Part shown: positions 3,783 to 31,130 of the stretch, one piece after another
Layout of the letters: every line of letters starts with the position of its first letter
Position numbering within the stretch: position 1 is the stretch's first letter
NCBI GenBank assembly: GCA_002746535.1
Contig: NVWA01000016.1
Span: 1-64,000, forward strand
Direction of reading: 5' to 3'
DNA from: Planctomycetota bacterium
GTDB lineage: Bacteria; Planctomycetota; GCA-2746535
DNA: 64,000 bases
Made by a program: the position numbers and the translations under genes
The notes under the pieces: model-generated
What the model was told of the DNA's origin: nothing
Database searches by the model: none
What the model saw: the letters and a program-made list of their open reading frames with translations, nothing else

Positions 3783-3974
3783 TTATCCTATACAGTTAAA
3801 AATAAATCATTATCGACAATATCACACAATAATTATATTACTAATAGCTTAAGTGATAAAAAATATTATGAGATAAGAGATGCAATGAATACTCATATTC
3901 TCAGCAATGACACGCTTAAAAGTAATCTCCTGGGGTTAATGATTTAATCCCCAGCAGACCTGAGCGCTATGTGC

Positions 3975-5738
3975 TCAGTCTTTAAAATTAAACTGCAAAT
4001 AACGCTTTCTTTTTGCTTCTTTAAAATGATCAATATTTAATAATATTAGACCATCAATTGTATTGAATTCTTTGTCTACATCAAAATCAAGAAAACTAAC
4101 ACCTTCTGTCTCACACAGCTCAGTATATTGCTTGAAAAGCATAGGCAATCTAACACCCATTGTTTTGAGCTCTTTCTGCAATGCTCTAACATTAGTGGAA
4201 TAATCACTTTCATTCAATTTTTCTTGAATTATTTTTTTAGACTCATCATTTACTTGATACTGATTGATAGCCCTTGCATAATTATCCTTTGCACCAAGAT
4301 GAAACTTAAAAAAGGCAACAATTAGTTGATGAGCTTTTTCTGGGATCTGATTACTTACGCTAACAGGACCAAATAAATATTTTATTTCTGGGCGACTTTT
4401 TAAACAAGCACCAATGCCATACCATAAATATTCTAACCCACGTTTACCCCAATACTTTGGTTGTATAAATGCTCTTCCTAGCTCCATGCCATTATCAAGA
4501 AACTCAGCGGAGCATTCTTGATAATTAAAAAATTCTGATGTGTATAGTCCTTTAATTCCTTTGTTTTTTATAATATCATGAACCATTCCCAATCGATATG
4601 CTCCAATTATTTCTAATTCTTCTTCGTCCCATAGAATTAAATGTTTGTAATACTGATCGTAGGGATCTGTATCTATCGACTCCCCAGTGCCTTCATCCAC
4701 ACATCTAAAGGCACATTCTCTTAATCGACCTAACTCTTTAATGACAGGAGAATTAGGAGTGTAATCATATAAATATATTTTCTTAGATTCACCTATTAAA
4801 CCGATCAATTCAGCATTTTTTAATTCTGATTTCAAATCTCGACGGTCTACAGAAGAGCAGATACTCTTAACTGTTTCAAAAGGTATATCACCAGAATTTA
4901 TTTTAGAAATTTGATAAACAATTTTTTTGAGTGCTTTGGTTGTTTTCTCAGACGACATTGATGTTTTTTTGATCTCCCTATACGGAATCATTTCACTCAC
5001 TTTTATGCGAATTTCTTTATTGGTCTTCTTTAACAATTCACCCGGCAACATTGCTTTACCAATTTTTTTATTGATAAAGGACATCATATAAAATCCTGGT
5101 GAATTTTTGGCATCAATATAAACTGGCAAAATTGGTGCATTTGTTTTTGCAGCAATTTTTAAAAAGTCATCATTCCACTTTTGGTCTAAGACTCCTCTCC
5201 AACTAAAATTGGAAACAAAACCTGCTGGAAATACAATTAAAGCCTCATCATTGGAAACAACTTCAATCGCTAAATCCAAGTTCATTTTAGATGAAATAAC
5301 TGAACTCTTCATGGAAGGTATTTTTTCTAATATTTCATTTGATAATATTTTAACATCCTGCCTAACTTCTTGGACAGCTCTCAGTAAACATAAACCATCA
5401 ATCGATCCAAGCGGATGATTTGCAACGATAATAACTTTTCCAGTTGAAGGGATATTTACGCGATCTTTACAACTCATACAATAAGAAAAGTTTAAGTACT
5501 CAAATGCCTCATCAATAAATTCGGTCGATGTTTTATCAATATGATTATTTAAGAATTCATTGATTTCTTTTTCATGAATTAATTTTTTCAATGTCTTTTG
5601 AACAATTGAATTTCTTCGCCCTTCACTTTTTGGCAACCCAGGAAATTTAATGGTCAAAAAATCTGAAATATTTAATATCGGTTCCGGCTCATTGCTAGTG
5701 ACTTCATTGCTTCTTTTCATTAACCTTGTTGTCGACAT
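3975..5738 (-). CDS. bifunctional acyltransferase, OlsF-like (N-terminal PlsC-like O-acyltransferase plus C-terminal OlsB/hemolysin-like N-acyltransferase)
   Basis: N-terminal half carries VIIVANHPLGSIDG and FPAGFVSN (PlsC-like motifs I and III). C-terminal half carries ELGRAFIQPKYWGKRGLEYLWYGIGA, resembling the OlsB / Acetyltransf_5 family. Confidence 0.5.
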   Translation of the reverse strand: MSTTRLMKRSNEVTSNEPEPILNISDFLTIKFPGLPKSEGRRNSIVQKTLKKLIHEKEINEFLNNHIDKTSTEFIDEAFEYLNFSYCMSCKDRVNIPSTGKVIIVANHPLGSIDGLCLLRAVQEVRQDVKILSNEILEKIPSMKSSVISSKMNLDLAIEVVSNDEALIVFPAGFVSNFSWRGVLDQKWNDDFLKIAAKTNAPILPVYIDAKNSPGFYMMSFINKKIGKAMLPGELLKKTNKEIRIKVSEMIPYREIKKTSMSSEKTTKALKKIVYQISKINSGDIPFETVKSICSSVDRRDLKSELKNAELIGLIGESKKIYLYDYTPNSPVIKELGRLRECAFRCVDEGTGESIDTDPYDQYYKHLILWDEEELEIIGAYRLGMVHDIIKNKGIKGLYTSEFFNYQECSAEFLDNGMELGRAFIQPKYWGKRGLEYLWYGIGACLKSRPEIKYLFGPVSVSNQIPEKAHQLIVAFFKFHLGAKDNYARAINQYQVNDESKKIIQEKLNESDYSTNVRALQKELKTMGVRLPMLFKQYTELCETEGVSFLDFDVDKEFNTIDGLILLNIDHFKEAKRKRYLQFNFKD

Positions 5739-13079: not shown

Positions 13080-13154
13080 GGCGGGTGTAGCTCAGTTGGT
13101 TAGAGCGTCTGATTGTGGTTCAGAAGGTCGTGGGTTCGATCCCCACCACTCGCC
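13080..13154 (+). tRNA. tRNA-His (anticodon GTG) with genomically encoded G-1
   Basis: Folded by hand. Acceptor stem GCGGGTG/CACTCGC with one G-T wobble, D-arm GCTC-AGTTGGTTA-GAGC, anticodon stem TCTGA/TCAGA with loop TTGTGGT, T-arm GTGGG-TTCGATC-CCCAC and discriminator C. An extra 5' G at 13080 marks His. Confidence 0.85.
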
Positions 13155-13204
13155 CTTTAATTTTGATCGTTCTTGTAGAAATATCAAAAACTGAAAATGC
13201 CTCT

Positions 13205-21083: not shown

Positions 21084-21908
21084 TTACAATTTTAATTTTG
21101 ATTTTTGCCAATTTCGTGGGCTTGCACCATAACGTTTTTTAAAAATACGAGAGAAGTAAGCCTCATCTTCGTAACCAATTTCATTTGAAATTTGAGAAAT
21201 TGTTTTTTGAGTGTCGGTTAATAAATAGGTCGCGACCTTCAAACGATGTGCTAATAAATAATTGATTGGAGAATCTCCAAAATACTCTTTAAATTTTACA
21301 CAAAAATTGGGTACAGAATAATGGGCCATTTCAGCTAATTCTTCCAACTGAATGCTCTGATCATAATTTTGAACTAAATATTCTTTGATAGATTGAAACT
21401 TTGACGGGGTTTGAATTTTTTTAGCTCCCATGTGACTGTTGGATATCTTTCTCAAAAATATCTCAATTAAACTGCGAACGATACTTGGATCCACTAATGA
21501 TTCATTTACCACTTCATGATATAAATTTAATAAATATTGATCAAAAAATATTGGATTTTCAAAACGAATAGGAACTTTTGTGGGTAGTTTTAAATGCTTC
21601 AATGTTTTTTTAATCAAGCTTCCATCACAATGCAACCAAGAGTGTGACCACACAATTTCTTCATTTCCATAAAAATGGGAATCGCTGGGCTCCCAAATAA
21701 CTAATGAATTACTTGGGATTAATAATTCTTCATCTAACGTCGATAGCTTAACCTCGTTCCAAAACATCATAAACAAATAATCACCGGTACCTTGCGTACG
21801 CCGAACAAAACTTTTGTTCATAGATTCTGAAATGCCTAATGCACGAATACACAATTCATTTGCAACGGGAGTTGGATAATTTGGGAATAGTTTTAATTCT
21901 TTATTCAT
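21084..21908 (-). CDS. AraC family transcriptional regulator
   Basis: C-terminal AraC-type HTH (ISQISNEIGYEDEAYFSRIFKKRYGASPRNW) and an N-terminal cupin-like sensor. Confidence 0.8.
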   Translation of the reverse strand: MNKELKLFPNYPTPVANELCIRALGISESMNKSFVRRTQGTGDYLFMMFWNEVKLSTLDEELLIPSNSLVIWEPSDSHFYGNEEIVWSHSWLHCDGSLIKKTLKHLKLPTKVPIRFENPIFFDQYLLNLYHEVVNESLVDPSIVRSLIEIFLRKISNSHMGAKKIQTPSKFQSIKEYLVQNYDQSIQLEELAEMAHYSVPNFCVKFKEYFGDSPINYLLAHRLKVATYLLTDTQKTISQISNEIGYEDEAYFSRIFKKRYGASPRNWQKSKLKL

Positions 21909-21960: not shown

Positions 21961-24900
21961 TTACGCCTCTTCATCATCGTCATCATCTAGATCAAAGTCT
22001 TTGTTTTTATTTTTTGCCTTAATGTTCGCTAGCAATTTATCAAAATCTTGATTAGCATCTTTTATGGTCGCCTTCAGTTCTTTTAGCTCTTTTGTATGAC
22101 CTTTAGACGAATCATATAATGATTTCATCCATGTTTCCATCAAATTAACTTGATGGTTCAAGACATTGACAAAAGCCAATGGCATTCTGTTTTTAATTTC
22201 AATACTTGGCGGCTCAGTAACAGGCAAACTCCCAAAGCCCTCTACAATCCCTTCCTTAAAACCATTTACCATATTTTCCATTTGGCTTACCATACGCAGT
22301 GTAATTAATTCCGTTTGGTTTTCTTTTGGCTTTTTATTTTGGCTACTCAGCAAGGCATCTTTAATTGATTCAATTCCTTCGGACAAATTGCTGATCTGCA
22401 AAATAACCTGGCCGACCTTATCACCTTCTTCAATACCTTGCATCGAAAGTTTTTTCTTAAAAGTTCTTTTTATCGCTGACCAACGATCGCTTTCCTCTTC
22501 AGTTATCGTACCTTTAATCTCATTAAATTTTAAAAGATTTGACTCTGCACCTGTTGTTAATGTTTGCGCTTCATTCTCATAATGATTGTCAATAAGTGCT
22601 TCTAATTCTTCGTCATTCATAACGGATACAATTTTTTCTACGATCTTATTCATATTTCGATAAGAACCTTGCAACTTGAATGGTGGCTCGGTTCTATAAT
22701 CATCTTGCATGGCCGCTGAACTGACATAATTCTTATTCACATTTAAGATTACGTCTCTTACCCGCAGAATCTTTTTCATGGTATTCACATACTCATCAAT
22801 TTCTTCGACTGAATAATTACCCACAAATTCAACTCCATCACGACTTCCTTTTTCAGCAATGTCGACAATACCATAAACATCTTTTTGGCTTGAACTCGCT
22901 AATTTATTTAAAACGGGGTTAGAGGTTAAACTGTTTTCTACATAAGATAATTTAAATGCCTCTTCACTATCCCCAGCAACATCACCTAAATTGTAAGTAT
23001 CAGCACGGTTGGCTAACATATCTGGAATCTGAAATTTATCGCCACTTTCGGTGTATGGGTTACCCGCCATGACAACCGCAACTTTTCGTCCACGAAGATC
23101 ATAGGTTTTACTTTTGCCCTTATAAACACCTTCCATTTTTCTTTGACCATCACACAAGGAAATAAACTTCTGCAAAAACTCTGGATTACAATGCTGAATA
23201 TCATCTAAATAGATCATAATATTATCACCCATTTCGAGAGATAAATTTAACTTTTCAACTTCTTGTTTTGCACTAGCATTTGGAGCATCTGCAGGATCCA
23301 AAGATGTGACTTCGTGACCAAGAGCTGGGCCATTTATCTTCATGAATGTCAAGCCCAACCGATTGGCAATATATTCCATTAAGGTTGTTTTACCATAACC
23401 TGGTGGAGAAACTAATAATAACATACCCATTAGGTCTGTACGCTTTTGGTCTCCAGCCGCACCCATTTGTTTGGCAAAGTTATCACCAATCATTGGTAAG
23501 TAAACTTCATCAATTAATTTATTTCGAACAAACGATGATAATACACGCGGCTTAAACTCATCTAGTCGCATCAACTCTTTTTCGTCTTCAATGAGCTGAG
23601 CTTTTAAGCTACGGTATTCATTAAATGCTTTTACAGTGACATCTTCAAACTCACGCATTTTCAAAGTAAATAAATTATAATTAAGGAAATATTTTCCATC
23701 TTCGATAACTTTGTGACTGCCAGTGATGCCCTCGACTTCAGTAGAAATGGAGACATCAACTAATTTATATTTCGCACTATCACCTTGTGTAATTGCTACG
23801 GCAACTTCATCAATATAACGCTCGTCAATAGATTCATTTTCAGAATCGATAAAAGCTTCTAACCAATCTCGACTCAACTGGCATTGACTTCCCGCCTGTG
23901 GGCTCAACTCTTCAATTGCTTTTGTAAACTTATCATTGTAATGACGTGATTTTAAATATTTCAAAAAAGCACCCTGAAGGTCTTTTGCTTCTTTCGACAA
24001 AACAAAGACTTCACCGTTTTGCAATTGCTCAAATAAATATTCCGCCGCTTGATCAACATATTGTTCGCCAAAATAATAAACAAGATCCGTACATTCTTTT
24101 AGCAATTCAGCAATATGAAAAATATATTTCTCTTGCTTCTTATGGCTACTAAATAATTCATTCATCAAGCCAAAACCACGCAATTGCGACAAAACCATTT
24201 CTTTCGTTTCATCATCAATAAAATGAGACCAAAAGAAACTCGCCATGGCACGTGATTGAGTGTCAAATTTTAACAATCCAATACCAATGTGTAGCCTTAA
24301 CAATTCCTTAAGTATCTTTGCGCCATCAAGATCATGCAACCCTTTGGTATATGATTCTTCATAACGATCACTCATAAAATGTTGCAACCTATCTAAAAAC
24401 TCATCCTCAGGTAAATTTAATAAGCCCGTAATTTCAGATTGATCTTGTGTTTTAAGTTCTTCCAAAAATTTAAATACGAGATACTCCCCTTTATATACTT
24501 CTGTATTTTCAGATACGATATCTTGCGACCAGACTTCTCTTGTTTTCAGGAAGGCTTCATCGGTCACCTCTTCAAAATAATTAGTACCGGCAAGATGGAA
24601 AAACATTTCATCATCTTTTTGCACGATACTTAAATCTAATTCTTGTGTATTTGTCGTAAAATTATGTTTACCCAAACGAATAATATTTTCGCCATCGACG
24701 AATAATTCTTTGCGGTCTTTTAATTGTCTGACGGTTTCCTCTTGCAATGATTTCAAACGGCTTTGCAAATCATCAGACTTGACCATGTCACCAAGATCAG
24801 AAAGCTTAGCGATAATATCGCGTGATTTCTCAATCATTAAGTCAGAAGCAAAATAGCCATTGATTTCATTGATTTCTGTGAACTGGCTAGCCCGGTGCTT

Positions 24901-27243
24901 GATACCATTTAGAATGCGATCAGCAGCTTTTAATAAAGAGGTGGCTTTCTTGTTACGAGCATCTTGCAGTGTGACTTTTTTAGTTTCAAAAGCATTTAAG
25001 ACTTCTTCTCTTTTATCCGTGAGAGTTATAATAAACTCGTCAAATTCTGAGAACTTGCCTTCTAACTCTTCGATCTGAACCATGATCTTTGTCATGTACT
25101 CGTCACATTTTTCCGGTGTATCAGAAACATCTAAATAATTTATGATACTATGGCTCATCAATTTTAATTGAGAGTTAAATTCAGCAATACCTTCGGAGCT
25201 TAAAAGTTCTTTCTTCTTATTTTTTATTTTAACTTTAGTTTGATTAACGGAACTAAAGATCGAAGAAATGCTATCTATTATTTGAGTTGTTTGGGTTGGA
25301 TCATCAATTTTTAAATTACTGACGATATCGATTAGCATTTCTAATTCATTAGAAGATTGTTTGATATTTGCTTCAAGCTCTTTGGCATCCATACCTTTTT
25401 TAACAGTTTCAATCTTCTCATTTATTTCAGTAATTTTATCTTTGTATTTATCAAGAGATTTTGGCTCCAATAAAAACTGCACACATTGCTGAGAAAGCTT
25501 CTCGGTGTTTTCAGTAATTATTTTTTCAGCTTCTTCCAATGCTTGAATATTAATATAACGAACACTTTTCGAAGAGATGACTTCACCGCGCAATGCACGT
25601 AGAGCGGCTAAATTAGTAACAAATGGATCAATATCATTTTTAGGTGCTGATTGAATATCTTTTGTGAGCTGATCGACTTTTTTGCGAATTTCTTTTTCTG
25701 TAGAAGTTGCATTCAGCCTGAGCTTTAAGACTTTTTCAAATTCATCAACAGCACTGCCGGCAGCTTCCTTGATGGACTCAATTGGTTTATTAAGGAATAA
25801 GGTATCTTCTTTGTCTAACCAAAAATAAGAATCAAGAATATCTCCAGCCTTTTTGACAATATCAACATAGACGCCTTCATAGGCTTCGCCCTTATTCAAT
25901 AGAGTTAAGATTTCATACATCTCAGCCATACCACCGACAAGATCTTTATTGCCAATTTTGAATAAAAACGAATCCGTTGAAGTTGTTTGTACAAAATCAT
26001 CACCAGTGTAAGGTGTTTGCCAAATTTGAACCGTGTGATGCTTCTGAGGGTTTTCTTCTGTTTTAAAGAACAGCATTTCACCATTAGAGAAAATTGAATA
26101 ACCATTACATATAATCGGCGTTTCAACTTGCTGCTCAATCAAGTTATAGGACATTAAAATGTATATGCCCAATTCCCGATTATAAAATGCATATAAATAA
26201 TCTTCACCATTGGGTGATGCGACACGCTTTTCAAAGATCAAACCTGTTGTTTCATTTTCAAATGATTTGTGATCGCCATTTTGAAGAAAATAACCATTCG
26301 AAAAAATAATACCGTGATTATCGGGCAAGAGAATACAAGAGTCCTCTACACTATCGACGCGCACGACCTTCTTGGCTTTTTCGCTATAAGCAAAATATCT
26401 AAATTTATCTTCTTGGTAGGGTCTAATCTTTAAAAGAATAATATTTTCAATGATCGTATAAAAATATTCGGCATCATCTAAGGTTTGATCAACCTGCTCA
26501 ACGGCTTCAGAATAAATCCCTTCCCCCGACTCTGTGTTGTCTTCAATTTTAATAGTAAGGTCACCACCAACAGTTTCAACAAATAAACGATCTTCAATGG
26601 ATACATGCGGGTGGTCACCTGATCGATGCAAATCACGATGGGTTCTTATCCATTCAAATTCATGTTGTACAGGATATTTAAATTCAGCCTCAGAACGATT
26701 GCCCTCATAGTTTAAATTCTCGCCATCTATTTGCCATTTAAAGACCTTAACATCTCCAACGCTTTTACCAATTCTGAATACGGCATAAAGATAGGGCCCA
26801 AGAATAGAAAATTTTACAAATGTCGTGTTTTTATAGTATTTATATAATTCTTTAAAATCTTCTCTAAAAGGCTCATGACTAAGGAAATCATGCTCCGTCT
26901 TGTGAAACAAATGATCATCAAAATTGTATACACTTAAGACGTCTTCTGGATGAAGTTCTGACTTCAACCCTACATGAACATTATAACCAAAAATAAAAAA
27001 ACCACCGATTGAAATCATATCTCGAGGGATACAGTTATTATCAGTCGTAATTCTTTCAGTCTTTAATAGCTCAGTCGCAATTGACCCAAAGACTTCTTTA
27101 CGCTTGCTATTAAGTTCTTGAAGTTTGCCTCTTAGGGTTTCACCATGATTGTCAAGCCTACTTTTAATAATCTCATAGGTTCCACTATCAAGCTGAATGC
27201 CATCGGCCTTTTCATTTTGATCAATTATTTCTTCAGTCGCCAT
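21961..27243 (-). CDS. 1760-aa protein with an AAA_5 (MoxR/dynein-like) ATPase module
   Basis: Walker A LLLVSPPGYGKTTLMEY (encoded around 23385..23420), Walker B IMIYLDDIQHCNPEFLQKF and ...VAVVMAGNP sensor region. An N-terminal region of roughly 1250 aa carries coiled-coil stretches. The C-terminal tail is poly-acidic, DLDDDDDEEA. Confidence 0.6.
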   Translation of the reverse strand: MATEEIIDQNEKADGIQLDSGTYEIIKSRLDNHGETLRGKLQELNSKRKEVFGSIATELLKTERITTDNNCIPRDMISIGGFFIFGYNVHVGLKSELHPEDVLSVYNFDDHLFHKTEHDFLSHEPFREDFKELYKYYKNTTFVKFSILGPYLYAVFRIGKSVGDVKVFKWQIDGENLNYEGNRSEAEFKYPVQHEFEWIRTHRDLHRSGDHPHVSIEDRLFVETVGGDLTIKIEDNTESGEGIYSEAVEQVDQTLDDAEYFYTIIENIILLKIRPYQEDKFRYFAYSEKAKKVVRVDSVEDSCILLPDNHGIIFSNGYFLQNGDHKSFENETTGLIFEKRVASPNGEDYLYAFYNRELGIYILMSYNLIEQQVETPIICNGYSIFSNGEMLFFKTEENPQKHHTVQIWQTPYTGDDFVQTTSTDSFLFKIGNKDLVGGMAEMYEILTLLNKGEAYEGVYVDIVKKAGDILDSYFWLDKEDTLFLNKPIESIKEAAGSAVDEFEKVLKLRLNATSTEKEIRKKVDQLTKDIQSAPKNDIDPFVTNLAALRALRGEVISSKSVRYINIQALEEAEKIITENTEKLSQQCVQFLLEPKSLDKYKDKITEINEKIETVKKGMDAKELEANIKQSSNELEMLIDIVSNLKIDDPTQTTQIIDSISSIFSSVNQTKVKIKNKKKELLSSEGIAEFNSQLKLMSHSIINYLDVSDTPEKCDEYMTKIMVQIEELEGKFSEFDEFIITLTDKREEVLNAFETKKVTLQDARNKKATSLLKAADRILNGIKHRASQFTEINEINGYFASDLMIEKSRDIIAKLSDLGDMVKSDDLQSRLKSLQEETVRQLKDRKELFVDGENIIRLGKHNFTTNTQELDLSIVQKDDEMFFHLAGTNYFEEVTDEAFLKTREVWSQDIVSENTEVYKGEYLVFKFLEELKTQDQSEITGLLNLPEDEFLDRLQHFMSDRYEESYTKGLHDLDGAKILKELLRLHIGIGLLKFDTQSRAMASFFWSHFIDDETKEMVLSQLRGFGLMNELFSSHKKQEKYIFHIAELLKECTDLVYYFGEQYVDQAAEYLFEQLQNGEVFVLSKEAKDLQGAFLKYLKSRHYNDKFTKAIEELSPQAGSQCQLSRDWLEAFIDSENESIDERYIDEVAVAITQGDSAKYKLVDVSISTEVEGITGSHKVIEDGKYFLNYNLFTLKMREFEDVTVKAFNEYRSLKAQLIEDEKELMRLDEFKPRVLSSFVRNKLIDEVYLPMIGDNFAKQMGAAGDQKRTDLMGMLLLVSPPGYGKTTLMEYIANRLGLTFMKINGPALGHEVTSLDPADAPNASAKQEVEKLNLSLEMGDNIMIYLDDIQHCNPEFLQKFISLCDGQRKMEGVYKGKSKTYDLRGRKVAVVMAGNPYTESGDKFQIPDMLANRADTYNLGDVAGDSEEAFKLSYVENSLTSNPVLNKLASSSQKDVYGIVDIAEKGSRDGVEFVGNYSVEEIDEYVNTMKKILRVRDVILNVNKNYVSSAAMQDDYRTEPPFKLQGSYRNMNKIVEKIVSVMNDEELEALIDNHYENEAQTLTTGAESNLLKFNEIKGTITEEESDRWSAIKRTFKKKLSMQGIEEGDKVGQVILQISNLSEGIESIKDALLSSQNKKPKENQTELITLRMVSQMENMVNGFKEGIVEGFGSLPVTEPPSIEIKNRMPLAFVNVLNHQVNLMETWMKSLYDSSKGHTKELKELKATIKDANQDFDKLLANIKAKNKNKDFDLDDDDDEEA

Positions 27244-27351
27244 AATTTACCTAACGGTGATAATTCAATTAAAATTTTTCTCAAATTAAACTTCTTTTCA
27301 GAATTAAAAGAGACATAGTCAAAGATTATGCCTCACTTGTAATGAATCTGA

Positions 27352-29454
27352 TTAAAGATTTAATAAGCTGGCGGCTTTATCCGCCAGACCGTTATTTTGT
27401 ACAAAATCTAAAATGCCTTCTAACGAACTCGTCGTACCTTTATCTTTTGACTTGGTCATAAGCTTCCCAATCAAGGCTGATAGACTGATGTTTTTAAGAT
27501 CTTCAGAACTCATACCAAACTGATCAACAAATTTACTTAATTGGTCTTTAAAGTATGCTGGATCACCGTTAAAGAATGTTTGTTTCACATCTGTTAAGAC
27601 TTTACTGTTATCAACCGTTCTATCGATTGACTTACCCGTTGTGATAGAGTTAATCAACTTGTCAAAGAACATTGTATCACCACCGACAATATCAATTTTA
27701 GCTGTTCGTAAACCTTCTTTTAGAATTTCAGCTTGTTCTATTGCAATATCTTTCTGAATGTGCAATTCAGTGATCTCAACTTCTTTATCTTTCTCTAACT
27801 GCAATTTGAATTGCTCATGAAATTGACTTTCATCATCAAAAAGCTTCATCGCTTCAGCTTTGTGCTCAATGCCAGAAGCTTCAGCATTATACTTCTCAGA
27901 CATTACATGAGCTTCTACAAGACCTTGTTTCTCTAATGCAATTGCTTTAGCTTCAATAACTTTCGCTTCCGAAAGACCTTCTTGAGCTTCGGCTTTAAAT
28001 TTTTCTTCCATGACAAGAGCTTCCATCACACCTTGTTTTTCCATGGCACTGGCTTTAGCTTCAATGACTTGTGCTTGAGCAAGTCCAACGGCAGCTTCTT
28101 CAGCGGTTAAGGCTTCGGCCAAAACTTTCATTTCATCAGCTTTTTTCATAGCGGCTTTTTCACTAGCATCAGCGTCAATCAATGTTTTTTCAGCATTAAA
28201 GACCGAAGACTTTTTCTCAGCTTCCGCTGCTGTGATATCTTTTACTAGTTCCTGTTCAGCCATTCTCTCTGCATCTGTAATGGCAACTTTTTTCTCTCGA
28301 TCAGCAGCAGCAAATTCGCGAGTATCTTTAATTTTTTCTTCTTCTTCAACAACAAGCTTTTCAACCATGACTCGTTCTTTAATGACATCCTGGATAAGCT
28401 TCTTCTCAATTTCAATGGCTTTATCTTTTTCAATATCCGCCAGAGCAACGATTCTTTCTCTTTCAGTTATTTCCAACTGACGGTCTTTTTCGACTCGTTC
28501 CGTTTCAACCGCATGAGTTCTTTCTTTATTCTTTAGCGCCACAATAACTTGCCGTTGTTTATTTTCTTCGGCTATTTGCAGCTCTTCTTCCGTAGAAATC
28601 CGAGCTCGCTCAGACTTTAGTTTTTCTTCTTCGTCAACTTTAGCAATTTCAGCCTCTTCTCTAGATTTCACATTAGCTACTTCACGTTTCTGCTTTTCTT
28701 CCGTTTCGGCTAATTGCCTTTCCATTTCAAGGATCGCTTCCCGAGCATTAACATTTTGTTGGGTAATTTTTTTCTCTTTTTCATTCTCAATATCGTTCGA
28801 AAGAATTGATTGGGCTGCGGTCAAACGAGTTATCTTTTTAATGCCTTCTGCATCTAAAATATTATCTGGACTTAAATGCTCTAAATCCGTTTGCTCTAGA
28901 TAATCAATGGCACAGTCATCTAAAATATAACCGTTTAATTCTTTGCCAATAACTTTGAGAATTTCATCTCTAAATTTTTCTCTGGAATTATACAAATCGA
29001 TAAAATCAAATCGTTTACCTACTGATTTTAAGGCTTCTGAGAATTTGGCATCAAACAACTCCTCTAAAGCTTCTTGCTGAGAAGCTCTTTTACAACCAAT
29101 TGATTGAGCAACTTTGATCACAGCCTCTTCATTTTTGCTGACTTGAACAAAAAAGGCAACTTTAATATCTGCTCTCAAATTGTCTTTACAGATTAGCCCA
29201 TCTTTCCCCAATCGAACAATCTCTATTCGCTTTAAAGAGATATCCATAATTTCGTGTCTATGCACTACAGGATAGACCATAATTCCGTTAAATGAAACTT
29301 TTGTTTTACCCATTCCTGTTCTAACCAAGGCTGTCCCCTGAACAATCTTCATAAAACATTTAACAATCACCAGCCCAATTACAATTACTGAAACTACGAA
29401 AAATACAATAACTGCAATGGTCATTCCGCTTAAAAAGTCCATCTTAATCTCCAA
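27352..29454 (-). CDS. flotillin (SPFH/Band 7 domain, YqiK/FloT-like)
   Basis: N-terminal TM helix, SPFH domain and a long EA-rich coiled coil with internal repeats, matching flotillin architecture. Confidence 0.8.
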   Translation of the reverse strand: MEIKMDFLSGMTIAVIVFFVVSVIVIGLVIVKCFMKIVQGTALVRTGMGKTKVSFNGIMVYPVVHRHEIMDISLKRIEIVRLGKDGLICKDNLRADIKVAFFVQVSKNEEAVIKVAQSIGCKRASQQEALEELFDAKFSEALKSVGKRFDFIDLYNSREKFRDEILKVIGKELNGYILDDCAIDYLEQTDLEHLSPDNILDAEGIKKITRLTAAQSILSNDIENEKEKKITQQNVNAREAILEMERQLAETEEKQKREVANVKSREEAEIAKVDEEEKLKSERARISTEEELQIAEENKQRQVIVALKNKERTHAVETERVEKDRQLEITERERIVALADIEKDKAIEIEKKLIQDVIKERVMVEKLVVEEEEKIKDTREFAAADREKKVAITDAERMAEQELVKDITAAEAEKKSSVFNAEKTLIDADASEKAAMKKADEMKVLAEALTAEEAAVGLAQAQVIEAKASAMEKQGVMEALVMEEKFKAEAQEGLSEAKVIEAKAIALEKQGLVEAHVMSEKYNAEASGIEHKAEAMKLFDDESQFHEQFKLQLEKDKEVEITELHIQKDIAIEQAEILKEGLRTAKIDIVGGDTMFFDKLINSITTGKSIDRTVDNSKVLTDVKQTFFNGDPAYFKDQLSKFVDQFGMSSEDLKNISLSALIGKLMTKSKDKGTTSSLEGILDFVQNNGLADKAASLLNL

Positions 29455-30094
29455 TTCTGTTAATATCTGATTTTGTTACTATAAACAAATCATCTTTATT
29501 ATCTTTAGTGCTATATACAATTACTTCATCACCTTTATTAAACTCATCACCTTCATCACAAACAACATTCAATTTTACTACGCCACTTTCTCCTGTTAAT
29601 AATTCAATTTGGCCATATTCCTCTGTGATTTTAAGAGAAGTTACGACACCAATTTGGCCAATAACTTCTTCGTGTTCAGTACCGCTATTTAATGCTTTAA
29701 ATAATTTCTTGAATGGTATTGAGCAGTACTTCGTAAACATCGCAGATACAAGAAAGTTTGGTACAAGAATTATTACGGAAATGAAAATTGAATTACTAGC
29801 ATTTAAATAATGATTTGCTGTCAGTCCAAAGAACCATAAAAATATGGTAAATATATTAAACAGCACCATGATTGGGATTTCACCAATATTAAAAAACAAT
29901 AGGATTTGTTTAAAGAGGCCACCATCAATATCCGCATTAAGTTCAATTTCGACATCTGTTTCGGTATCAACATCAAATGCTTCCACATCTATGAAGCCAA
30001 GGATTATTGTTGTCCAATACATCATCGTAAAACCCAATAAAATAGTATAGGGTAAATTTACGATTAAGAATAAAGCCTTGAAAATCTCATCCAT
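29444..30094 (-). CDS. NfeD/YqiJ-like membrane protein
   Basis: N-terminal TM helices plus a C-terminal soluble beta-rich domain. It overlaps the flotillin start by 11 nt, as in the E. coli yqiJ-yqiK pair. Confidence 0.55.
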   Translation of the reverse strand: MDEIFKALFLIVNLPYTILLGFTMMYWTTIILGFIDVEAFDVDTETDVEIELNADIDGGLFKQILLFFNIGEIPIMVLFNIFTIFLWFFGLTANHYLNASNSIFISVIILVPNFLVSAMFTKYCSIPFKKLFKALNSGTEHEEVIGQIGVVTSLKITEEYGQIELLTGESGVVKLNVVCDEGDEFNKGDEVIVYSTKDNKDDLFIVTKSDINRIGD

Positions 30095-30390
30095 ATATAG
30101 ACCTTTCGGGAGGTAAAGCTGAAATTATAGCCTAAAGCTTAGACTCGCAAGATCAAACTTAACTTACCAAAAATTAAAAGCATTAAATAAAATGATTTCT
30201 CATTTATTGAACGGACATCATTTTACATACACAACCAAACTAAGCTTTTACAATTAAAAATAAACTTTATAAAGGCTCACTTATCAAATAATCTATCGAA
30301 TTTAGATTAAATTTAAGAATAAATATTATCGAAAAAAGTTACTTTTAATTCTATAATTCATTTATGGCTTAATTCAATAAAGGGATCTTT

Positions 30391-30690
30391 ATGAGCGTAA
30401 TATACATAGATGTTGACAATACTTTAATAACCACCTATCTAAAAAAAAGAACTCCGATCAATCATATCTCTGATAACATCAGTGACCTTTCAAAAAAAGG
30501 ACATCTCCTTTACTGTTGGTCCACCGGTGGAGCAATCTATGCAAAAGACATTGCTATAGAACTTGGTATCGAAAAATATTTCGAAGCATTTCTTCCGAAA
30601 CCAGAAGTTATGATTGATGATCAACCAATCAATACATGGAAACTTCTCAAACAAATCAAACCTGATCAGTTTTCATTGGATGATTTTTAA
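30391..30690 (+). CDS. small HAD-like protein
   Basis: IYIDVDNTL (HAD motif I, DxDxT). Only 99 aa. Confidence 0.35.
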   Translation: MSVIYIDVDNTLITTYLKKRTPINHISDNISDLSKKGHLLYCWSTGGAIYAKDIAIELGIEKYFEAFLPKPEVMIDDQPINTWKLLKQIKPDQFSLDDF

Positions 30691-31130
30691 TGACCACAAC
30701 CATCAAGCTTATTACCTTCAACTCAAATGATTATCACAAAGCTTTTAAATTTCGAAATGATCTATTAAGAAAACCACTTGGTCTTGATTTATCTGATGAT
30801 GATCTTAGCAATGAAATAAATAACTACCATTTTGGAACCTTTGAAAATGAAGAAATCATTGCTTGCTTAGTTGGTACCGAAAAAGATAAAACAACTATGA
30901 AAATAAGACAAATGGCTGTTTCTGAAAAATATCAATCGAGAGGTTTAGGCAAGCAAATGATGATCTACGCTGAAACCTTTTTTATCAATAAAGGCTTCAA
31001 ACAATTTGAATTAAATGCGAGAGAACACGCTATTCCATTTTATGAAAAATTAGGATACCATTCAGTGGGCGATATTTTTATGGAAGTCACAATAAAACAT
31101 GTCAAAATGTTTAAAGTTTACGACAACTGA
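30690..31130 (+). CDS. GNAT family N-acetyltransferase
   Basis: QSRGLGKQMM acetyl-CoA binding motif. Confidence 0.7.
   Translation: MTTTIKLITFNSNDYHKAFKFRNDLLRKPLGLDLSDDDLSNEINNYHFGTFENEEIIACLVGTEKDKTTMKIRQMAVSEKYQSRGLGKQMMIYAETFFINKGFKQFELNAREHAIPFYEKLGYHSVGDIFMEVTIKHVKMFKVYDN

Follow-up and report, generated by a model that had tools for sequence, protein, structure and literature searches.

A conserved gene unit encoding a YqiJ-like membrane protein, a long flotillin and a giant MoxR-class ATPase in a Planctomycetota genome

The stretch of DNA analysed here (hereafter the window) comprises positions 1 to 64,000 of contig NVWA01000016.1, part of a Planctomycetota metagenome-assembled genome of 33% G+C (assembly GCA_002746535.1), and carries three consecutive genes on its minus strand. 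The first encodes a YqiJ/YuaF-type (NfeD-like) membrane protein, the second a long flotillin and the third a giant cytoplasmic ATPase of 1760 aa that belongs to the DUF3686 or 'DNA repair ATPase' family. Because flotillin and giant recur in the same order in 58 of 61 loci, the YqiJ-like gene joins them in 54, and the whole trio is found again in five of five more distant records, the three genes form a real conserved unit whose arrangement lies far beyond chance. We propose, as a probable reading that we hold with some reserve, that the locus encodes a conserved three-protein membrane module in which a giant AAA+ ring is recruited to a flotillin/YqiJ scaffold and remodels this scaffold (and PspA), at the expense of ATP, under membrane stress.

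The conservation of the unit was surveyed in 80 species-level genome loci, whose open reading frames (ORFs) were searched with the proteins of the window. They represent Planctomycetota, Bacteroidota, Verrucomicrobiota, Kiritimatiellota, Desulfobacterota, Clostridia and Omnitrophota, and the upstream survey was restricted to the 61 that have at least 5.5 kb of upstream DNA. An orthologous flotillin of ~700 aa lies upstream of the giant gene on the same strand in the 58 loci mentioned, and in the 54 a YqiJ-like gene directly precedes the flotillin as well. The more distant annotated records, with 35-42% identity and confirmed with profiles, are those of Proteus mirabilis, Vibrio campbellii, the megaplasmid pQBR103, Streptomyces and Deinococcus. 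The spacing between flotillin and giant genes ranges upward from an overlap (-11 nt), with a median of ~120 nt, and in many loci the two genes overlap or lie less than 50 nt apart; at spacings above about 450 nt, the intervening ORFs bear no relation to each other. The original prediction, made from the letters of the window, had taken the three genes for a unit and had considered that its case would fail if homologues of the giant were never found beside SPFH or NfeD genes. The neighbourhood survey bears the unit out and clearly contradicts this scenario, flotillin adjoining the giant in nearly all the loci. The strong conservation of both giant and flotillin fits a constrained multi-protein machine.

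Other candidates for membership were rejected. The ORFs found between flotillin and giant in ~20 loci are heterogeneous (GxxExxY-type proteins, small transmembrane proteins) and yield no conserved fourth core gene, and the downstream clusters (sulfatases, ABC ATPases) show no specific linkage to the trio. The AraC-family regulator of 274 aa (21084..21908, minus strand; Pfam HTH_18 and HTH_AraC), counted as part of the architecture in the original prediction, lies directly downstream of the giant in this window only: no other locus among the 82 compared has an AraC homologue at that position, and the AraC-family genes found near three of them (L035, L043 and L054) sit elsewhere. The AraC gene is a local neighbour, outside the conserved module. 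As a side observation on the records themselves, two Proteus mirabilis sequences of the plasmid collection (NZ_OL790812.1 and NZ_OL790811.1; L088, H3) are labelled 'plasmid' at ~4.08 Mb, the size of a chromosome, and are barely annotated.

The four minus-strand ORFs of the original prediction (the trio and the AraC regulator) are all present in the ORF map. The YqiJ-like protein has 216 aa (29444..30094), the flotillin 696 aa when read from the ATG at 29442 (27352..29442; a TTG at 29454 would give 700 aa), and the giant occupies 21961..27243, all on the minus strand. We regard the ATG as the more likely start of the flotillin; it is preceded by GGAG, lies one base past the yqiJ stop codon and is the start of the Joint Genome Institute gene call (696 aa). 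The 11-nt overlap between the two genes that had been claimed exists if translation starts at the TTG; with the favoured ATG it is therefore probably a 1-nt spacer. The yqiJ and flotillin genes are tightly coupled whichever start applies.

That the first two genes are of the yqiJ-yqiK type, as had been stated, is confirmed by sequence comparison. The YqiJ-like protein matches the Pfam family YqiJ_N with 26.3 bits (cut-off 23) and aligns with E. coli YqiJ over almost its full length, C-terminal domain included (BLASTP E 2e-10). Hydropathy analysis indicates about three hydrophobic segments (aa 4-35, 60-91 and 103-121), followed by a soluble, beta-rich C-terminal domain. As to an NfeD-type oligonucleotide/oligosaccharide-binding fold, the window protein gives no Pfam NfeD match and its Deinococcus orthologue gives a weak one (E 0.0024). 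The flotillin matches Pfam Band_7 (38.4 bits, E 1.7e-9), gives no match to the separate Pfam model named Flotillin, and is 30% identical to E. coli YqiK over 446 aa that cover the SPFH and coiled-coil parts (BLASTP E 4e-44). Its layout consists of one N-terminal transmembrane segment (aa 9-27, the only one found by hydropathy), the SPFH/Band_7 domain (aa 33-173), a coiled coil rich in glutamate and alanine, and a conserved C-terminal domain at aa ~520-660. The partner flotillins of other loci match it at E ~1e-200 with a per-column identity of about 0.7, and a sequence search of the PDB returned no match to it. Within the coiled-coil region, a repeat search (family D1) found a tandem duplication of 108 nt, or 36 aa (27877..28092, minus strand), whose two copies are 70% identical and which adds an extra repeat of the same glutamate- and alanine-rich type; one copy is missing in most flotillin homologues, the region being 25-60% gapped in an alignment of 63 of them.

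The family of the giant is large: more than 4654 homologues reach E<1e-10, and identities across phyla are 50-56% over nearly the full length, with a column identity of 50-60%. Pfam assigns to it DUF3686 (E 3.6e-180, aa 37-474), DUF7902 (E 1.4e-26, aa 596-679; 25207..25458) and AAA/AAA_5 (aa 1275-1398). Hydropathy analysis of the protein detects no hydrophobic or transmembrane segment, and Pfam no peptidase family. An AlphaFold2 model of aa 1-1200, built from a 51-sequence alignment with a mean predicted local distance difference test (pLDDT) score of 79.8, consists of a long helix, a propeller with all-beta blades, a stretch of ~420 aa in long helical bundles and two further domains, one small and of beta type, the other helical. 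The predicted N-terminal propeller (aa 58-410; 26014..27072, minus strand) follows the long helix (aa 22-52) and forms the core of DUF3686, and a long stretch of helices or coiled coil (aa 426-844; 24712..25968, minus strand) holds DUF7902. The best Foldseek matches of the propeller among PDB structures (FBXW8, beta-TrCP, the clathrin terminal domain and Vps18) indicate only a generic WD40-like fold; the dynein and axonemal chains also returned for the long N-terminal model have TM-scores below 0.1, a likeness that we disregarded as generic to long helices. The last ~130 residues of the giant (aa ~1632-1760; 21964..22350) end in an acidic tail, DDDDDEEA; tblastn matches in Bacteroidota and Clostridia end near aa 1631, and the Planctomycetota homologues reach about aa 1750.

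The second part of the giant contains the single AAA+ module (aa ~1255-1465; 22849..23481, minus strand). A model of aa 1150-1760 (pLDDT 77.5) shows one such module, with a beta-hairpin before sensor 1, and then a helical C-terminal region. We identified the Walker A motif GYGKTT (K1285), the sensor-1 residue N1395, a candidate arginine finger at R1413 and the beta-hairpin at aa ~1369-1382; Walker A, Walker B, sensor 1 and R1413 are invariant in 18 homologues. The Walker B motif reads IYLDD (aa 1343-1348, window ~23201..23218) and not the canonical hhhhDE, and both D1347 and D1348 are invariant in 18 and in 51 homologues; we take such a DD ending to recall the Walker B motifs of the DnaA type. 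The fold is closest to those of the MoxR chaperones NorQ and CbbQ, and the AAA_5 match reaches 27 bits (cut-off 22). The module is of the MoxR class (AAA_5/AAA_3), and the MoxR/dynein-type AAA_5 module announced in the original prediction is thus upheld. Comparison with solved structures shows no sequence relation past the P-loop, a PDB search with the family profile having given matches to p97 and RuvB at the level of Walker A alone; likewise, NCBIfam and PADLOC searches of the window proteins gave just P-loop-level matches to RuvB and TRIP13, far under thresholds.

Between flotillin and giant the junction (27244..27387, minus strand) comprises a hairpin, a 108-nt spacer and a ribosome-binding site. 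The gap of 108 nt (27244..27351) is as had been reported; the AGGT of the giant lies at -9..-6 of the ATG, which leaves a spacer of 5 nt, corrected from the 6 nt given before. The hairpin (27368..27387) lies within the last 12 codons of the flotillin and has a stem of 7 bp, 6 of them G-C pairs (CTGGCGG-ATAAAG-CCGCCAG), in this 33% G+C genome. It was flagged as terminator-like on the plus strand only, and on the coding strand it continues into CUUAUUAAAUCUUU, which is no clean U-tract. The predicted folding of the junction RNA is slightly better than that of shuffled sequences (z = -2.0). A terminator-like hairpin is found at the same junction in 8 of 42 related short-gap loci and is absent from the other 34, and the promoter scan detected no minus-strand promoter-like site in the 108-nt gap. 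From these sequence features, flotillin and giant are likely to be co-transcribed as an operon in this window; the hairpin may act as an attenuator or influence mRNA stability, and attenuation at the junction would possibly lower the stoichiometry of the ATPase.

The trio is not new to the literature. Ravi et al. (mSystems 2024, preprint 2020; PMC11237479) described a PspA-linked neighbourhood composed of CesT/Tir, YqiJ/YuaF, a band-7/flotillin protein and an AAA+ ATPase with beta-propeller and coiled coil, and they also mention 'abbreviated' operons that lack PspA. The claim of the original prediction that no such system had been described must therefore be withdrawn. Their account of the neighbourhood is purely computational, and it is so far the only comparative-genomics paper in which the association has been noted; our search of the literature on DUF3686 (PF12458), on DUF7902 (PF25472) and on 'DNA repair ATPase' together with flotillin found no paper on the giant family.

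The extended form is readily found in our collection. In 18 Bacteroidota loci the genes for CesT_Tir_1, PspA/IM30, YqiJ, flotillin and giant follow each other in that order, and 17 of these 18 have in addition a divergent regulator with HTH_3 and Peptidase_S24 domains, of the LexA/CI-like, self-cleaving type (e.g., 3956..4753 in locus L013), which suggests derepression triggered by damage or stress. Other neighbours are specific to lineages. A DUF4178 gene lies directly downstream of the giant in four Bacteroidota loci (e.g., 7084..7632 in L027). On pQBR103 of Pseudomonas fluorescens SBW25 (L085, NC_009444.1 85112..97641), PspA, a rhomboid protease, DUF2491, DUF350 and DUF1190 proteins and a glutathionylspermidine synthase are encoded upstream of the trio. 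In Vibrio campbellii (L089 12834..14612) a phospholipase D-like HKD protein and TelA follow the giant directly, and the Streptomyces copy has a TerD gene in its vicinity; Ravi et al. also reported phospholipase D in some Proteobacteria (PMC11237479). Because neither a PspA profile nor tblastn detects PspA in the 64 kb, the window carries the abbreviated, PspA-less form of the operon; CesT/Tir is likewise absent from the 64 kb.

The starting points for a functional proposal are the gene content, domain folds, AAA+ class, gene order in many phyla, CesT/Tir-PspA linkage in Bacteroidota and PspA linkage on pQBR103 observed here; from them we infer the oligomeric states, a physical contact among the three partners, what the ATPase acts on, and an induction by stress. 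By analogy with other SPFH proteins, the long flotillin, anchored by its single N-terminal helix, would use its SPFH and coiled-coil parts to oligomerise and so build a cage- or ring-like scaffold at the inner membrane, on the cytoplasmic side, where the YqiJ/NfeD-like protein with its three transmembrane segments would act as the usual membrane partner of a flotillin. The soluble giant would form a ring by means of its MoxR-class module, and its propeller and long helical arm could recognise the scaffold or its clients. ATP hydrolysis would then result in the assembly, disassembly or reorganisation of the flotillin scaffold, and the ESCRT-III-like PspA polymer, where present, may be a target too, presumably in a setting of membrane or envelope stress. 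Such a module would correspond to HflK/C-FtsH without the protease, or be functionally analogous to Vps4 in its action on ESCRT-III. MoxR-class AAA+ rings are known to remodel specific protein complexes. SPFH proteins build large membrane-attached cages, among them a flotillin 44-mer (PMC13000311, PMC11260169), and in B. subtilis PspA is connected with the membrane by an SPFH protein (PMC8581546). The proposal matches the functional inference of PMC11237479. ATP-driven remodelling or scaffolding at membrane microdomains, as suggested in the original prediction, stands as the most reasonable functional reading.

Several observations weigh against this proposal. We found no experimental datum for any member of the giant family. 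Three of the 61 loci have no flotillin upstream of the giant, and in the window, which lacks PspA, the connection with PspA is indirect. A VWA partner is usual for MoxR-class ATPases, and no VWA family was found among the genes called within 10 kb on either side of the trio or among the recurrent neighbour clusters. The DD in place of DE in Walker B may make the hydrolysis kinetics unusual, and the GC-rich hairpin in the final flotillin codons might partly uncouple the transcription of the giant. A bolder version of the proposal would have the giant as a dedicated, PspA-independent, energy-dependent factor for the assembly or disassembly of flotillin cages. No ATP-driven regulator of SPFH/flotillin microdomains would have been known before it, and it would occur in more than ten phyla, hidden so far under the misleading name 'DNA repair ATPase'; we put this forward tentatively and think it rather unlikely to hold.

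The flotillin and the YqiJ-like protein could be simply a platform, on which the MoxR-class ATPase chaperones some other client, for instance membrane protein complexes in the course of maturation or insertion, in the way that NorQ and CbbQ serve their own targets, and leaves the scaffold itself unremodelled. These two proteins are indeed the closest folds of the module, the beta-propeller is a generic protein-binding device, and a chaperone-like assembly role for the partners of band-7 proteins has been suggested by Ravi et al. (PMC11237479). Yet a search for a conserved fourth gene that might code for a client or a VWA adaptor gave none, the inserts between flotillin and giant are heterogeneous, and the sole recurrent extra partners, PspA and CesT/Tir, are themselves membrane-remodelling components, so that we consider a platform of this kind unlikely. 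More improbable, in our opinion, is a conflict or anti-phage system of the abortive-infection type, in which the large NTPase would sense invasion with its propeller and act through the membrane proteins. A large ATPase encoded with membrane proteins does recall some defence systems, the family is present on megaplasmids, and its neighbours include the HKD phospholipase D and TelA beside the Vibrio copy and TerD near the Streptomyces copy. However, none of the four proteins of the window has a meaningful match in PADLOC-DB 2.0 (three have no match at all, and the TRIP13 match of the giant is weak, E 0.0046, and confined to the P-loop region), and no homologue of the giant occurs in 50,697 phage records. 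Moreover, the trio is surrounded in the window by metabolic or housekeeping genes and not by a defence island, and the very high conservation across phyla is unlike that of fast-evolving defence genes.

The database names of the giant would make it a DNA repair ATPase that merely happens to lie beside membrane genes. Pfam describes DUF3686 as an 'ATPase involved in DNA repair', NCBI uses 'DNA repair ATPase', and there are weak matches to RuvB_N and RuvB; those to the RuvB models amount to 22.9-25.5 bits against cut-offs of 282-299 and span ~45 residues at the P-loop only. We detected no nuclease, helicase or DNA-binding domain in the giant and found no paper backing the database name, and the near-obligate partners are two membrane proteins; a role in DNA repair is very improbable, and the public name is probably misleading. 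We give equally little credence to an incidental adjacency, in which the giant and the AraC gene, just 52 nt downstream of it, would be a unit separate from yqiJ and flotillin. The 108-nt gap and the terminal hairpin of the flotillin gene would suit such a division, which is contradicted by the neighbourhood survey: the flotillin-giant linkage holds in 58 of the 61 loci, often with overlapping genes or gaps below 50 nt, and the AraC gene follows the giant directly at no other locus. The reading that we prefer remains that of an ATPase recruited to, and remodelling, the flotillin/YqiJ scaffold.

The remaining features of the window are of local interest. The AraC gene was correctly placed close downstream of the giant in the original prediction. 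Upstream of yqiJ, an intergenic region of 296 nt (30095..30390) is common to a divergent gene pair and is presumed to be the promoter region of the trio; the promoter scan found in it just promoter-like consensus matches, which are non-diagnostic. The divergent pair itself (30391..31130, plus strand) encodes a 99-aa ORF with a weak DUF705 match and a GNAT acetyltransferase. The B. subtilis yuaF-floT-yuaI operon also ends with a GNAT gene; the likeness is probably a coincidence, because the divergent pair is not conserved at the other loci. The sole RNA gene found by Rfam and tRNA scans in the 64 kb is a tRNA-His(GTG) at 13081..13155, and these scans gave nothing relevant near the trio.

How bacterial flotillin assemblies act, form and turn over is still unsettled, and a giant ATPase that is the near-obligate genetic partner of one flotillin subfamily offers a concrete handle on these questions. 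The partnership is present in tractable hosts, such as Proteus mirabilis, Vibrio campbellii, Streptomyces, Flavobacteriia and P. fluorescens SBW25 with pQBR103, a well-studied megaplasmid that puts an experimental system for the trio at hand. The neighbourhood will not surprise a specialist in the comparative genomics of the phage-shock-protein (PSP) response, and the window itself adds one more PspA-less member and nothing further; the system constitutes a testable problem in bacterial membrane biology.

Among known systems, the neighbourhood of Ravi et al. is the closest: its three proteins agree with ours in domain architecture, their genes follow one another in an identical order on a single strand, and we recovered its full form, with the divergent gene for a helix-turn-helix (HTH) and protease protein, around giant homologues in Bacteroidota. 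The window differs from it by having no CesT/Tir or PspA and by the AraC gene downstream. Their example from Dokdonia donghaensis (ANH61663.1) also lists a divergent HTH-protease gene (PMC11237479); we infer that it corresponds to our trio from the matching architecture and order in related Flavobacteriaceae. The E. coli yqiJ-yqiK and B. subtilis yuaF-floT operons, which pair an NfeD-like protein with a flotillin of the SPFH2 group (Hinderhofer et al. 2009, PMC2636767), correspond by homology to the first two genes here, which are tightly coupled. However, in E. coli no ATPase follows yqiK, and the flotillin of the window exceeds YqiK by ~150 aa and has a conserved C-terminal domain.

More distant parallels concern the logic of the module. 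In HflK/C-FtsH, as in the prohibitin/m-AAA protease pair, an SPFH scaffold is associated genetically or physically with an AAA+ ATPase at the membrane, with HflK/C forming a cage that surrounds FtsH (PMC13220708). Unlike FtsH, the giant lacks both a transmembrane segment and a protease domain; it is of the MoxR/dynein class, outside the classical FtsH clade, and carries a beta-propeller. With the MoxR chaperones (NorQ, CbbQ and RavA) and the related dynein and midasin AAA modules it shares a P-loop AAA+ fold that is closest to the MoxR members, whereas its Walker B ends in DD instead of DE and its module is embedded in a protein of 1760 aa together with a propeller and ~800 aa of helical regions. 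Finally, the proposed logic of an AAA+ ring that remodels a membrane-bound polymer would be the same as that of Vps4 acting on ESCRT-III, and of bacterial PspA with an AAA+ protein. The giant differs from Vps4 in its AAA+ clade, in having no MIT domain and, in the window, by the absent link to PspA; yet PspA is a member of the ESCRT-III superfamily, and it is linked to the trio in Bacteroidota and on pQBR103.

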